Origin: Escherichia phage ZCEC14
Reading direction: 5' to 3' (one strand)
Sequence record: OP168898.1
DNA length: 64,000 nt
Within the stretch, counting starts at the first letter, position 1. Every line of letters begins with the position of its first letter. A program made the translations under genes and the position numbers. Below are positions 26,927-40,270 of the stretch, one piece after another. The notes beneath the pieces are model-generated. The model did not search any database, had not been told where the DNA came from, and saw only the letters and a list, made by a program, of their open reading frames with translations.

Positions 26927-26999
26927 TGGGAATTAGCCAAGTTGGTAAGGCACTGGATTTTGATTCCAGGATGCAAAGGTTCGAGTCCTTTATTCCCAG
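26927..26999 (+). tRNA. tRNA-Gln (anticodon UUG)
   Basis: Acceptor TGGGAAT/ATTCCCA, anticodon loop TTTTGAT, T-arm GGTTCGAGTCC. Confidence 0.85.
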
Positions 27000-27000
27000 C

Positions 27001-27087
27001 GCGAGAATGGTCAAATTGGTAAAGGCACAGCACTTAAAATGCTGCGGAATGATTTCCTTGTGGGTTCGAGTCCCACTTCTCGCACCA
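27001..27087 (+). tRNA. tRNA-Leu (anticodon UAA), class II with long variable arm, CCA encoded
   Basis: Acceptor GCGAGAA/TTCTCGC, anticodon loop CTTAAAA, T-arm GGTTCGAGTCC, 3' ACCA. Confidence 0.85.
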
Positions 27088-27092
27088 AATTT

Positions 27093-27166
<74 letters not shown>

Positions 27167-27176
27167 ATTTAATTTA

Positions 27177-27250
27177 CTCCGTGTAGCTCAGTTTGGTAGA
27201 GCGCCTGATTTGGGATCAGGAGGTCCAAGGTTCAAATCCTTGTATGGAGA
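27177..27250 (+). tRNA. tRNA-Pro (anticodon UGG)
   Basis: D-arm TAGCTCAGTTTGGTAGAGC, anticodon loop TTTGGGA, T-arm GGTTCAAATCC; no encoded CCA. Confidence 0.8.
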
Positions 27251-27252
27251 CT

Positions 27253-27342
27253 GGAGGCGTGGCAGAGTGGTTTAATGCACCGGTCTTGAAAACCGGCAGT
27301 CGCTCCGGCGACTCATAGGTTCAAATCCTATCGCCTCCGCCA
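27253..27342 (+). tRNA. tRNA-Ser (anticodon UGA), class II, CCA encoded
   Basis: Acceptor GGAGGCG/CGCCTCC, anticodon loop CTTGAAA, long variable arm, T-arm GGTTCAAATCC. Confidence 0.85.
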
Positions 27343-27347
27343 GTTTT

Positions 27348-27423
27348 GCTGATTTAGCTCAGTAGGTAGAGCAACTCACTTGTAATGAGAAGGTCGGCGG
27401 TTCGATTCCGTCAATCAGCACCA
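27348..27423 (+). tRNA. tRNA-Thr (anticodon UGU)
   Basis: Acceptor GCTGATT/AATCAGC, anticodon loop CTTGTAA, T-arm GGTTCGATTCC, 3' ACCA. Confidence 0.85.
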
Positions 27424-27424
27424 A

Positions 27425-27499
27425 GGCCCTGTAGCTGGAAGGTTCAAGCAAGCGACTCATAATCGCCAGATGGTGGTTCAATTCCACCCAGGGCCACCA
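27425..27499 (+). tRNA. tRNA-Ile (anticodon CAU, presumably lysidine-modified; tRNA-Met not excluded)
   Basis: Acceptor GGCCCTG/CAGGGCC, anticodon loop CTCATAA, T-arm GGTGGTTCAATTCCACC, 3' ACCA; position matches T4 tRNA-Ile. Confidence 0.7.
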
Positions 27500-27511
27500 A
27501 ATTATGAATTA

Positions 27512-27598
27512 GGGGAGTTATCCCGTAGAGGTAGCGGTGTGGACTGTAAATCCATTGTCATTGCGACTCGGGTGGTTCGACTCCATCACTCCCCACCA
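27512..27598 (+). tRNA. tRNA-Tyr (anticodon GUA), class II with long variable arm
   Basis: Acceptor GGGGAGT/ACTCCCC perfect 7 bp, anticodon loop CTGTAAA, variable stem GTC-ATTGC-GAC, T-arm GGTGGTTCGACTCCATC, 3' ACCA. Confidence 0.7.
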
Positions 27599-27602
27599 AT
27601 TT

Positions 27603-27677
27603 GGATGTGTAGCTCAATGGCAGAGCGATCGCCTGTTAAGCGATTGGTTATAGGTTCGAATCCTATCACGTCCGCCA
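27603..27677 (+). tRNA. tRNA-Asn (anticodon GUU)
   Basis: Acceptor GGATGTG/CACGTCC, D-arm GCTCAATGGCAGAGC, anticodon loop CTGTTAA, T-arm AGGTTCGAATCCT, 3' GCCA. Confidence 0.75.
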
Positions 27678-27681
27678 AATC

Positions 27682-27757
27682 CGAGGCATAGCTCAGAAGG
27701 AAGAGCAAGGACCTTCTAAGTCCTGGGTCGTAGGTTCGATCCCTACTGCCTCGACCA
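27682..27757 (+). tRNA. tRNA-Arg (anticodon UCU)
   Basis: Acceptor CGAGGCA/TGCCTCG, D-arm TAGCTCAGAAGGAAGAGC, anticodon loop CTTCTAA, T-arm GGTTCGATCCC, 3' ACCA. Confidence 0.85.
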
Positions 27758-36863: not shown

Positions 36864-36893
36864 TTTACTTTTCCTCTTGACTGTGGTATAATT
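36864..36893 (+). promoter_or_regulatory. T4-type early promoter for regB
   Basis: GTTTAC 36864-36869, TGGTATAAT extended -10 at 36885-36893, RBS AAGAGGAGAACAACATG. Confidence 0.65.
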
Positions 36894-36919: not shown

Positions 36920-37381
36920 ATGACTATCAACACAGAAGTTTTTATCCGTCGAAATAAGCTCCGTCGTCACTTTGAGTCGGAGTTTCGTCAAATTAACAAT
37001 GAGATTCGTGAGGCATCAAAAGCAGCAGGAGTCTCATCGTTTCATCTAAAATATTCTCAGCATCTTCTTGACCGCGCAATTCAACGGGAGATTGATGAGA
37101 CATACGTTTTTGAATTATTCCATAAAATAAAAGACCATGTTTTAGAAGTTAATGAATTCCTAAGTATGCCTCCGCGTCCTGACATTGACGAGGATTTTAT
37201 TGATGGGGTTGAATATCGTCCTGGACGTTTAGAAATCACAGATGGAAATCTTTGGCTTGGATTTACAGTTTGTAAACCTAACGAGAAGTTCAAAGACCCG
37301 TCACTTCAATGTAGGATGGCAATTATCAACAGTCGTCGTTTACCAGGAAAGGCTTCTAAAGCAGTAATTAAAACTCAATGA
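36920..37381 (+). CDS. regB: Site-specific endoribonuclease RegB
   Basis: 153 aa as T4 RegB; basic N-terminus; position between vs block and denV side. Confidence 0.8.
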   Translation: MTINTEVFIRRNKLRRHFESEFRQINNEIREASKAAGVSSFHLKYSQHLLDRAIQREIDETYVFELFHKIKDHVLEVNEFLSMPPRPDIDEDFIDGVEYRPGRLEITDGNLWLGFTVCKPNEKFKDPSLQCRMAIINSRRLPGKASKAVIKTQ

Positions 37382-37388
37382 GGTAAGC

Positions 37389-37934
37389 ATGAGAAAAGCA
37401 CTACTCGCTGGTCTATTGGCCATTTCAATGATGGCACATAGCTCCGAGCATACTTTCAGTAATGTCCAACTCGATAACATGCGTTACGCGTATCAATTCG
37501 GGGAACAATTTTCTAAGGATGGAAAATATAAAACACATAAAAATATCCACAAGAGCGGATTAGGTCATATAATGGCTGCTATTTTATGGCAAGAAAGCTC
37601 TGGCGGAGTTAATTTAAAATCTAAACCAAAGCATCACGCCTACGGAATGTTCCAAAATTATTTGCCTACTATGCGAGCAAGAGTTAAGGAACTTGGTTAT
37701 AATATGACCGATGCTGAAATAAAAAGAATGTTGAATAAACGATCCAATTCAGCTTCCTGGGCGTACATTGAACTTTCTTATTGGTTAAATATACATAAGG
37801 GCGATATAAGAAAAGCAATATCCTCTTATAATTCGGGATGGAATGTTAAAGCAGGTTCTAAATATGCTTCTGAAGTCCTAGAAAAGGCTAATTACCTTAA
37901 AAATAATAAACTTTTGGAAATAGTAAATGACTAA
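37389..37934 (+). CDS. Secreted lytic-transglycosylase-like protein (vs.1-like)
   Basis: 181 aa with N-terminal signal peptide MRKALLAGLLAISMMAHS; position of T4 vs.1. Confidence 0.55.
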   Translation: MRKALLAGLLAISMMAHSSEHTFSNVQLDNMRYAYQFGEQFSKDGKYKTHKNIHKSGLGHIMAAILWQESSGGVNLKSKPKHHAYGMFQNYLPTMRARVKELGYNMTDAEIKRMLNKRSNSASWAYIELSYWLNIHKGDIRKAISSYNSGWNVKAGSKYASEVLEKANYLKNNKLLEIVND

Positions 37935-38274
37935 AATTTTGGTTTTATGTATAGGATTAATTTCATTTTCTGCTTCTGCGTCAGCAGATACATCATATAC
38001 TGAAATTAGAGAATATGTAAACCGCACTGCGGCAGATTATTGTGGGAAAAATAAAGCATGCCAAGCTGAATTTGCACAGAAATTAATATATGCATATAAA
38101 GACGGAGAAAGAGATAAATCAAGCAGATACAAAAACGATACATTATTAAAACGATATGCTAAAAAGTGGAATACTTTAGAATGTTCAGTTGCGGAGGAGA
38201 AAGATAAAGCCGCTTGTCATTCAATGGTTGACCGTTTGGTAGATTCTTATAATCGAGGATTGAGTACTAGATGA
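37927..38274 (+). CDS. vs: Valyl-tRNA synthetase modifier-like protein (vs-like) with signal peptide
   Basis: 115 aa, matching T4 Vs length and position; N-terminal hydrophobic signal. Confidence 0.5.
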   Translation: MTKILVLCIGLISFSASASADTSYTEIREYVNRTAADYCGKNKACQAEFAQKLIYAYKDGERDKSSRYKNDTLLKRYAKKWNTLECSVAEEKDKAACHSMVDRLVDSYNRGLSTR

Positions 38275-38738
38275 TTGTAAAATATATCAAGGGCGATATT
38301 GTCGCCCTTTTCGCTGAAGGTAAAAATATTGCGCATGGATGCAATTGTTTTCATACTATGGGTTCAGGCGTAGCGGGTCAATTAACCAAAGCTTTCCCTA
38401 AAATTTTGGAAGCTGATAAATTACAGACTGAATGGGGTGATGTAACTAAACTCGGTTCTTACTCAGTCTATGAAAAATACTTTAGGACTCATAAAGCGTA
38501 TTGCTTCAACCTTTATACTCAATTTCAACCAGGGCCAAATTTTGAGTATTCCGCTTTAATGAATTGTATGTTAGAATTAAATGAGTTTGGTGAAAATAAA
38601 CTGATTAAACCTACAATCTATATGCCTAGGATTGGTGCAGGCATAGGTAAAGGGAACTGGGATATTATTGAGGGGATTTTAGATACGTATTCCTCTAAAT
38701 TAGAAATTGTGATTGTTGATTGGGAACCGTTATTATGA
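38271..38738 (+). CDS. Macro domain (ADP-ribose-binding/processing) protein
   Basis: N-terminal IKGDIVALFAEGKNIAHGCNCFHTMGSGVAGQL resembles the macro-domain signature; 155 aa. Confidence 0.6.
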   Translation: MIVKYIKGDIVALFAEGKNIAHGCNCFHTMGSGVAGQLTKAFPKILEADKLQTEWGDVTKLGSYSVYEKYFRTHKAYCFNLYTQFQPGPNFEYSALMNCMLELNEFGENKLIKPTIYMPRIGAGIGKGNWDIIEGILDTYSSKLEIVIVDWEPLL

Positions 38739-38947
38739 ATATACATTATCCACATCCATATGACCCAAAGAATAAGGCAGTAATTATTCGTCAATGGGAA
38801 CGCATTTGTCGTACTAAATGTCCAATTAATAGTCCACATGATGTAGATAAAGATTACATTGGAACATTCGTTGAATATACCTTTATTGATAAGAAAGGTC
38901 GTAAACAGCACGTAGAAGAATACTGCTTAAAGGTGACATGGTTATGA
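38720..38947 (+). CDS. Hypothetical protein (75 aa)
   Basis: Overlapping ORF chain; no motif. Confidence 0.45.
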   Translation: MGTVIMNIHYPHPYDPKNKAVIIRQWERICRTKCPINSPHDVDKDYIGTFVEYTFIDKKGRKQHVEEYCLKVTWL

Positions 38948-39150
38948 GTCAAACTAGTATTCTTAAAAATGCCCACTGTGAAAAGTGTAAATGGCCGGTT
39001 GTTTTTGCTTTATGCAACGATGAAATGGCTTGTGATTTCGATTATTGGTGCTATTGTTCTAATAAAGGATGCATCAATCATAAAGGTGAAGGATTTTATT
39101 CGGGATTTTATCCTTATCCAGAATTCGTTAAAGAAGGTAAACCGAAATGA
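38938..39150 (+). CDS. Hypothetical Cys-rich small protein (70 aa)
   Basis: Cys pattern CEKCKW...CNDEMACDFDYWCYCSNKGC suggests a metal-binding fold. Confidence 0.45.
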   Translation: MVMSQTSILKNAHCEKCKWPVVFALCNDEMACDFDYWCYCSNKGCINHKGEGFYSGFYPYPEFVKEGKPK

Positions 39151-39320
39151 ATAGTTCTGAGCTACAATATGAAGTGTCACGTGAACTTGATAATTTAATT
39201 GAACTCGCTGCTAATAAAGGTTTTGCCATTGGAATTGGTCAAAAAGATACTGATCATTTAACTATGGAAATATTTAAGCAAAAGCGAATTATTTTAAAAC
39301 TTCTGGAAATTAATATATGA
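39147..39320 (+). CDS. Hypothetical small protein (57 aa)
   Basis: ATGA overlap with upstream stop; below ORF-track cutoff. Confidence 0.4.
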   Translation: MNSSELQYEVSRELDNLIELAANKGFAIGIGQKDTDHLTMEIFKQKRIILKLLEINI

Positions 39321-39502
39321 GCCTAAGCAAAGAACAAAAAGACAAACTCTTTTCTCTTATCCACGAAGTTATGGATAAAAATAGTGAATTGGAAAAAGTT
39401 TGTAATGAATGCGGTCCTTTTAGCGCAAATGAATACGAAGAACTTTCCAAAGAATTTGATAATAAAGAACAAGAACTCATTAATTATATAAATTCCTTAT
39501 GA
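39317..39502 (+). CDS. Small helical protein, member of tandem ~60-aa paralog family
   Basis: 61 aa; shares xEQxxKh...helix...YLExL pattern with 39499, 41498, 41704, 41888, 42226. Confidence 0.5.
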   Translation: MSLSKEQKDKLFSLIHEVMDKNSELEKVCNECGPFSANEYEELSKEFDNKEQELINYINSL

Positions 39503-39687
39503 TTACTCGCGAACAAAAGAACGAAATATTATTTTTAGTTGGTGAAATTATTAGTTTAGAAAAGGATTTGTCTTTTGAATTATCTTCTGATTATGGAGAT
39601 GCCGAAACATATTACGAATTAGTAAAATCTATCGATAAAGCTGAAAATGATTTAGAAACATATTTAGAAAATTTAACTAAGGACTAA
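39499..39687 (+). CDS. Small helical protein, member of tandem ~60-aa paralog family
   Basis: 62 aa; MITREQKNEILFLVGEII...DLETYLENL. Confidence 0.5.
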   Translation: MITREQKNEILFLVGEIISLEKDLSFELSSDYGDAETYYELVKSIDKAENDLETYLENLTKD

Positions 39688-39688
39688 A

Positions 39689-40270
39689 ATGGCGAGTTTA
39701 ATTTTTACTTATGCAGCAATGAATGCTGGAAAATCTGCTTCTCTTTTGACTGCTGCACATAATTATAAAGAACGCGGAATGAGTGTATTAGTTCTTAAGC
39801 CTGCTATTGATACTCGCGACTCTGTCTGTGAAGTCGTTTCTCGCATTGGAATTAAGCAGGAAGCGAATATTATCACAGATGATATGGATATTTTCGAGTT
39901 CTATAAATGGGCTGAAGCACAAAAAGATATTCATTGTGTATTTGTAGATGAAGCTCAGTTTTTAAAAACTGAACAGGTGCATCAATTAAGCCGAATTGTT
40001 GATACATATAATGTTCCTGTTATGGCTTATGGATTAAGGACTGATTTCGCTGGAAAATTATTTGAAGGTTCTAAAGAACTTTTAGCGATTGCAGATAAAC
40101 TTATTGAACTAAAAGCAGTTTGTCATTGCGGTAAAAAAGCGATTATGACAGCTCGATTAATGGAAGATGGAACACCAGTTAAAGAAGGTAATCAAATCTG
40201 TATTGGTGATGAAATTTATGTTTCTTTGTGTAGAAAACATTGGAATGAATTAACTAAAAAGCTCGGTTAG
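39689..40270 (+). CDS. tk: Thymidine kinase
   Basis: 193 aa as T4 Tk; P-loop MNAGKSASLL, C-terminal Zn-binding CHCGKKA...C motif. Confidence 0.9.
   Translation: MASLIFTYAAMNAGKSASLLTAAHNYKERGMSVLVLKPAIDTRDSVCEVVSRIGIKQEANIITDDMDIFEFYKWAEAQKDIHCVFVDEAQFLKTEQVHQLSRIVDTYNVPVMAYGLRTDFAGKLFEGSKELLAIADKLIELKAVCHCGKKAIMTARLMEDGTPVKEGNQICIGDEIYVSLCRKHWNELTKKLG

Follow-up and report, generated by a model that had tools for sequence, protein, structure and literature searches.

A short open reading frame (ORF) in the genome of Escherichia phage ZCEC14 raises the question of what a stand-alone macrodomain does for a T4-like phage, and with which active-site chemistry it would do it. A first-pass annotation of a 64,000-nucleotide stretch of this genome (sequence record OP168898.1; hereafter the window) had placed the frame in the tk-vs block, read its product as a macrodomain protein and suggested that it could reverse ADP-ribosylation-based host defence. 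Based on the comparisons described below, we identify the frame as the anti-DarTG2 gene of the window, and the reading made from the raw sequence is confirmed. The observation itself is correct, the interpretation placed on it is supported, and both were already known: gene, domain and role have been described before, with an A1pp/macro match in tk.4 orthologues reported as early as 2006 (PMC1524935). New in our analysis are the assignment of the protein to a class of macrodomains with glutamine, rather than lysine, in the active site and the recognition that its published name, AdfM, is shared with another protein.

The tk.4 gene and its surroundings

A six-frame ORF scan of the window returned exactly one frame at 38271..38738 on the plus strand, and the RB14 and T4 annotations agree with the location given by the first-pass annotation, in that they put tk.4 between vs and tk. 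The synteny is the same in both, with vs on one side of the gene and tk.3 on the other. The relevant features of the region are as follows:

36864..36892: sigma-70-like promoter match, TTTACT-17-TATAAT with TG, just upstream of regB (consensus scan)
36920..40270, plus strand: co-directional tight block regB, vs.1, vs, tk.4, tk.3, two extra small ORFs, tk.2, tk.1 and tk (ORF scan, RB14 and T4 annotation)
38271..38738, plus strand: tk.4/adfM coding sequence, ATG start, 155 aa, 17.5 kDa, a single macrodomain

The tk.4 ATG shares an ATGA with the stop codon of vs, which lies upstream, and the same kind of ATGA overlap joins the tk.4 stop to the tk.3 ATG at 38735, a tight packing that is typical for T4 early-gene clusters. 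The encoded protein is identical to T4 Tk.4 (NP_049723) at 155 of 155 residues, while the genes differ at seven nucleotides, of which seven are synonymous and none non-synonymous. Based on this identity, the exclusively synonymous differences, the Pfam Macro match described below and a match to PHROG 335 (E 1.3e-65), the orthologue group of T4 Tk.4/AdfM, the frame is confirmed to be more than a chance ORF; it is tk.4, a well-conserved gene of the T-even phages. The 3-kb segment around tk.4 shares 98.4–98.7% identity with RB18, RB14 and T2, and over a 24-kb segment of the window the identity to several Tequatrovirus genomes is about 95%, without a perfect match to any. From these identities we take the window to be a T4-like Tequatrovirus, in reverse orientation relative to the standard T4 map. 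It represents a Tequatrovirus different from T4 itself: its tk.3 and tk.2 are separated by two additional small ORFs.

Several features of the region stand apart from the function of tk.4. The two small ORFs (38938..39150 and 39147..39320, plus strand; 70 and 57 aa) are missing from T4 and appear in the RB14 annotation as RB32ORF111c and RB32ORF110c; the former encodes a potentially zinc-binding product rich in Cys (CEKCKWP...CYCSNKGC). The promoter match before regB is a lead only, since the promoter consensus scan found 22 sigma-70-like sites versus 19.3 expected from shuffles, a total that we do not regard as above the shuffles. Farther away in the window, a plus-strand tRNA cluster (26927..27757) comprises 10 genes: Gln, Leu, Gly, Pro, Ser, Thr, Met/Ile-CAT, Tyr, Asn and Arg. 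The Tyr and Asn genes seem additional to the eight tRNA genes that we take to be the T4 set.

The gene preceding tk.4, vs (37927..38274, plus strand), is annotated as 'valyl-tRNA synthetase modifier'. Its product starts MTKILVLCIGLISFSASASA/DTSY, and this N-terminus resembles a Sec signal peptide of the cleavable kind; such a signal is odd for a supposed modifier of a cytoplasmic aminoacyl-tRNA synthetase. The SLT-like product of vs.1 (37389..37934, plus strand) likewise has a signal-like N-terminus. According to the HIDEN-SEQ preprint, vs is the most depleted gene in minimal medium (bioRxiv 10.1101/2025.11.20.689424). Within tk.4 itself, codons 7–13 contain a perfect 8-bp inverted repeat, AAGGGCGA-TATTG-TCGCCCTT (38289..38309), which T4 and RB14 share unchanged and which the terminator scan flagged on the minus strand. 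The local fold at this hairpin is no better than that of shuffles (z -1.2); we reject it as a functional element and attribute it to the codons that specify K-G-D-I-V-A-L.

Assignment to the TARG1/ALC1-like macrodomains

Two checks from among those that the first-pass annotation had named for its macrodomain reading, an HMM search against the Macro family and structure prediction, came out in its favour. Tk.4 matches Pfam Macro (PF01661) with 27.7 bits, above the gathering cut-off of 22 (E 2.9e-6), over profile positions 2–113 of 118. An AlphaFold2 model, built on a 51-sequence family alignment (hereafter A1), reached a mean pLDDT of 94.9 and a pTM of 0.90 and has the three-layer alpha/beta/alpha macro fold. 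The conserved Asn of macrodomains and their two glycine-rich ADP-ribose loops are present as N25, G31-x-G33 and G122-x-G124, all invariant or nearly so across the 51 homologues. That Tk.4 is a macrodomain is, in our view, essentially certain.

When the PDB was searched with the Tk.4 sequence, matches to BT1257, Poa1p, SCO6735, DarG and TARG1 were obtained, and use of the 51-sequence family profile lifted the PDB matches to between 1e-17 and 1e-10. These same five proteins, and not macrodomains of the MacroD or PARG types, are the nearest relatives of Tk.4 in both sequence and structure. From the profile matches and the predicted structure, Tk.4 therefore belongs to the TARG1/ALC1-like class.

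A glutamine at the catalytic lysine position

The motif on which the first-pass annotation had relied, IKGDIVALFAEGKNIAHGCNCFHTMGSGVAGQL (residues 6–38), had on the whole been read correctly: N25 and G31-S-G-V34 indeed form the first ADP-ribose-binding loop, but the second loop (I121–G128) and the diagnostic Gln84 had been missed. The conserved elements that we recognize, with their conservation in A1, are:

38334..38348, plus strand: H22-G-C-N25-C26 motif (G23, N25 and C26 invariant, H22 near-invariant)
38361..38372, plus strand: G31-S-G33-V34, the first glycine loop, for ADP-ribose phosphate binding (G33 invariant, G31 near-invariant)
38508..38522, plus strand: N80-L-Y82-T83-Q84 motif (N80, Y82, T83 and Q84 invariant)
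38631..38654, plus strand: I121-G-A-G124-I-G126-K-G128, second glycine loop (I121, G122 and G124 invariant, G128 near-invariant)

In full, the residues invariant in the 51 sequences are G23, N25, C26, G33, A35, D49, N80, Y82, T83, Q84, G88, P119, I121, G122 and G124. Equivalences to characterized proteins were taken from a 12-sequence MAFFT alignment (A2) and from pairwise profile alignments; the Mtb DarG query sequence was 151/151 identical to PDB 5M3I, and the SCO6735 sequence was obtained with BT1257 as the query of a PDB search. The Asn that is conserved in macrodomains is N25, with DarG N22 and SCO6735 N27 as its equivalents in A2, and G23 occupies the SCO6735 V25 position in the same alignment. 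In the alignments, the G31-S-G33-V34 segment falls on the GxG loop found in TARG1, DarG and SCO6735. In the second loop, G124 corresponds to TARG1 G123 and SCO6735 G128, and G126 is found at the position of the catalytic D125 of TARG1 and of F152 in Poa1p.

The diagnostic position is that of Q84, which sits where TARG1 (K84) and DarG (K80) have their catalytic Lys and SCO6735 has its essential Gln85. An HMM alignment to TARG1 places Q84 on catalytic K84 and G126 on catalytic D125, and hhalign lays the NLYTQ84 of Tk.4 over the NFPTK80 of Mtb DarG. In the corresponding column of A2, Q is found in Tk.4-type proteins, BT1257 and SCO6735, and K in TARG1, both DarGs and PhiKZ gp104. Tk.4 thus combines a Gln at the TARG1/DarG Lys position with the stabilising Asn, its Q84 and N25 falling on Q85 and N27 of SCO6735. 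Judged by these motifs, T4-type AdfM is a member of the Gln-type, SCO6735-like active-site class and not of the DarG Lys-type, and its chemistry is probably not DarG-like. The Gln-for-Lys site leads us to predict that mutant designs based on DarG (K to A), and DarG inhibitors, are not transferable to T4 AdfM.

Distribution and genomic context of the family

Relatives of Tk.4 were detected by tblastn in 2750 of 50,697 phage records, the carriers including Straboviridae, Felixounavirus, Pakpunavirus, Kuttervirus, and Campylobacter and Streptomyces phages. An HMM scan of 1.84 billion cluster representatives yielded 1156 matches at 1e-30, 8691 at 1e-10 and 17,658 at 1e-3. Among the best 150 of that scan, the Y[T/S]Q motif occurs in 127 of 138 additional representatives; the six listed among those of the 138 without a regex match still carry the Gln, which is also kept in five of five distant phage homologues and, overall, in essentially every family member examined. 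Gene 129 of Streptomyces phage Circinus (MK620896.1 77945..78421) has the exact SCO6735/BT1257 motifs, AHVCND ... CNMVAQH. These differ from the HGCNC/NLYTQ of the enterobacterial phages, which suggests a separate acquisition from a host-type orphan enzyme.

At least 520 bacterial or metagenome-assembled (MAG) loci encode a Tk.4 relative, of which 80 were used for motif and neighbourhood work. The HGCN-type motif is present in 73 of the 80, and these 73 divide into 67 with N-x-Y-T/I-Q, one with an atypical N-V-A-F-Q and five with no regex match. A recurrent partner was sought around the 80 homologues through all-versus-all clustering of flanking ORFs, which revealed only lineage-specific synteny and spurious antisense ORFs, and tblastn/phmmer searches at single-sequence sensitivity found no DarT2 homologue in the window or within +/-4 kb of the 80 bacterial loci. 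With neither a conserved neighbour family nor a DarT2 homologue in these +/-4-kb surroundings, a bacterial toxin–antitoxin context was rejected; going by its gene neighbourhoods, the Tk.4 family is an orphan one with no nearby DarT gene. The best 'bacterial' match ('MAG: Bacilli bacterium') was rejected as a chromosomal locus, being T4-like phage DNA. On the 44-kb contig JBOFGC010000414.1 (GCA_051648945.1), T4 Rnl1, a Dda-like helicase, PNKP, dCMP deaminase and T4 spanin surround the Tk.4 homologue.

Anti-DarTG2 role and the AdfM name

Work on AdfN showed that T4 without adfA and adfN was still resistant to DarTG2, and a further factor was predicted (PMC11825919); this resistance fits tk.4 as the DarTG2 factor. 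In a preprint of November 2025, HIDEN-SEQ of T4 transposon mutants grown on DarTG2-carrying cells singled out tk.4 as the one significant gene, the only one that T4 needs to resist DarTG2; clean deletion of tk.4 sensitised T4 to DarTG2, and the gene was named adfM (anti-DarT factor Macrodomain), with structural similarity to Mtb DarG noted (bioRxiv 10.1101/2025.11.20.689424). The evidence in the passages considered here is genetic, and neither enzymology nor point mutants nor catalytic-mutant complementation are reported in them. Keeping in mind that the T4 protein is identical to the one studied here, this knockout genetics supports the reversal of ADP-ribosylation-based defence proposed in the first-pass annotation, and we consider the anti-DarTG2 role, behind which stands this single preprint, to apply to ZCEC14 through that identity.

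The name AdfM has also been given, independently, to PhiKZ gp104, a phage orphan macrodomain which counters DarTG2 and removes DarT2-made thymidine-linked ADP-ribose (T-ADPr) from an ssDNA oligonucleotide in vitro (Cell Rep 2026, PMC13309987). The names clash, the two proteins being only remotely related (BLASTP E 0.005 over 23 residues; hhalign probability 96%). PhiKZ gp104 is DarG-like and of the Lys-type (N23, K78, FPTK motif), whereas Tk.4 is of the Gln-type; in light of this difference and of their remote relation, the two AdfM proteins have the appearance of independent recruitments.

Proposed mechanism and alternative explanations

We consider it likely that Tk.4/AdfM is a stand-alone TARG1/ALC1-like ADP-ribosylglycohydrolase which removes DarT2-installed thymidine ADP-ribose from phage ssDNA in a lysine-independent manner. 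Made before or during DNA replication, Tk.4 would bind the ADP-ribose that host DarT2 puts on N3 of thymidines in single-stranded phage DNA and would cut the ribose–base bond, so that ADP-ribose is set free, the template can be replicated again and the DarTG2 abortive-infection defence is neutralised. Gln84, held by N25, would replace the catalytic lysine, as in SCO6735, and would position the distal ribose while a backbone-held water starts hydrolysis. We infer both the hydrolysis of T-ADPr DNA and the Gln/water mechanism from the behaviour of the TARG1/DarG/SCO6735 class, all three of which cleave T- or U-linked ADP-ribose, and from residue conservation.

The precedent for Gln-type activity is SCO6735 of Streptomyces, which is without the TARG1/DarG catalytic residues and removes DarT-made thymidine-linked ADP-ribose from DNA, protecting Streptomyces against DarT; the substitutions Q85A and Q85E abolish its activity and N27S nearly does so (PMC9411070). 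In the mechanism proposed for it from MD simulation and mutagenesis, water starts the hydrolysis and the Gln positions the distal ribose; V25 is suggested to hold the catalytic water through its backbone (PMC9411070). By analogy, this precedent argues for the proposed mechanism of Tk.4. Against it speak the low scores of Tk.4 with the DarG models, the missing Lys, needed by DarG and TARG1, and the absence from Tk.4 of the SCO6735 DNA loop, together with its mildly acidic character; yet PhiKZ gp104, active on ADP-ribosylated ssDNA in vitro, is still more acidic.

Three other explanations were weighed (a blocker, a Poa1p-like phosphatase and an eraser of the phage's own marks), and the evidence favours none of them. 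The lack of the catalytic Lys would also suit a stoichiometric inhibitor, as Tk.4 could bind DarT2 or cap ADP-ribosylated DNA without turnover, hydrolysis being dispensable or secondary, and the dead Q85A variant of SCO6735 retained inhibition of DarT in vitro, to a greater extent than DarG K80A or TARG1 K84A (PMC9411070). However, even very distant homologues show no variation at N25, at Q84 or in either glycine loop, a pattern typical of active sites that are constrained by catalysis. Tk.4 also has no equivalent of the DarT-binding domain of DarG, and for the bacterial orphans there is no DarT partner that they could bind, so that we regard inhibition by binding as unlikely.

Quite improbable, in our judgement, is an enzyme acting on small molecules, by dephosphorylation of ADP-ribose-1''-phosphate, deacetylation of O-acetyl-ADP-ribose or turnover of another soluble NAD-derived metabolite, with only an indirect effect on DarTG2. 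The RefSeq label 'phosphatase' with its A1pp motif (this motif also stands in the T4 RefSeq note for tk.4), the place of Poa1p among the best sequence and fold matches, the H-x-C-N-C motif common to Poa1p and Tk.4, and a homologue adjoining RNA ligase 1 and PNKP in one T4-like contig would all be compatible with such an activity. To our knowledge, however, T4 has no Tpt1/KptA to make Appr1p. Moreover, the sole phenotype found is specific to a DNA-ADP-ribosylating toxin (bioRxiv 10.1101/2025.11.20.689424). The active sites also differ, Poa1p having Ser at the position of the invariant Gln and Phe (F152) at that of G126.

T-even phages possess three ADP-ribosyltransferases, and, in line with the second suggestion of the first-pass annotation, for which our analysis gives no support, Tk.4 might remove the ADP-ribose, or the RNA linked via ADP-ribose, that T4 Alt, ModA and ModB put on host proteins, thereby tuning or recycling these marks, but the three enzymes target arginine, we know of no macrodomain that cleaves arginine-linked ADP-ribose, and the homologues occur in many phages and bacteria without sign of ART gene linkage, making this very improbable. 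SCO6735 and TARG1 do also act on protein-linked ADP-ribose (PMC9411070); against this, T4 can do without tk.4 on plain K-12, and the gene came up only in the presence of DarTG2 (bioRxiv 10.1101/2025.11.20.689424).

Returning to removal of ADP-ribose from DNA as the preferred function, we note that the tk.4 gene carries the database labels 'phosphatase', 'hypothetical', 'RNase III inhibitor' and 'Poa1p-like', and that the evidence points to a DNA de-ADP-ribosylase in counter-defence rather than to any of these. A broader view, possible but in our opinion somewhat doubtful, is that T4-type AdfM, instead of being a DarG antitoxin acquired by the phage, would belong to a separate, very large, lysine-less (Gln-type) lineage of orphan macrodomains, which many myovirus families and hundreds of bacterial genera would use, independently of a toxin, as a free-standing eraser of ADP-ribose on bases; in that case phages would have found at least two answers to DarT2 that differ in catalytic chemistry, with Gln in Tk.4 and with Lys in PhiKZ gp104. 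By analogy with SCO6735, Gln-type enzymes might have wider substrates, such as uracil-ADPr on RNA and protein Asp/Glu-ADPr, and if so would represent broad-spectrum anti-ADP-ribosylation factors.

Comparison with known macrodomains

Human TARG1/OARD1 (PDB 4J5R) is of the same class and fold as Tk.4, and its K84/D125 dyad is represented in Tk.4 by Q84/G126. Class and fold are likewise common to yeast Poa1p (6LFQ), as is the HxCNC motif; among the residues mutated in Poa1p structures, H23 corresponds to H22 of Tk.4 (conserved), S30 to T29 and F152 to G126 (not conserved), and Ser takes the place of Gln84.

Compared with DarG of DarTG2 (PDB 5M31, 5M3E, 5M3I, 7OMU), Tk.4 has Gln84 in place of the catalytic Lys80 of the FPTK motif and, as a single domain of 155 aa, is without the C-terminal DarT-binding domain and without an adjacent darT. 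DarG models give Tk.4 30.3 bits versus a cut-off of 250 (NCBIfam NF048014) and 36 bits (PADLOC DarG, macrodomain part only). Membership in the DarG family was rejected, as the scores are far under the curated cut-offs and the catalytic Lys, the second domain and darT are all absent.

With SCO6735 (PDB 5E3B) and BT1257 of Bacteroides (2FG1/2AFC), identity in A2 is only 20–28%, and Tk.4 is phage-encoded. SCO6735 uses a Lys-bearing mobile loop for DNA (PMC9411070); the longer loop of this kind in SCO6735 and BT1257 (K89 and K94 in SCO6735) has no counterpart in Tk.4, which shows a 5–6-residue gap there in A2. The pI of Tk.4 is 5.9, mildly acidic, versus 9.7 for SCO6735, with 8.7 also figuring in the comparison with the SCO6735/BT1257 subgroup, and Tk.4 thus has neither the extended Lys-bearing loop after the Gln nor the strongly basic surface. 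The motifs differ as well, HGCNC and NLYTQ in Tk.4, HVCND and NMIGQH in SCO6735, and HICND and NMIGQH in BT1257; N25, Q84 and G124 of Tk.4 nevertheless have their equivalents in SCO6735.
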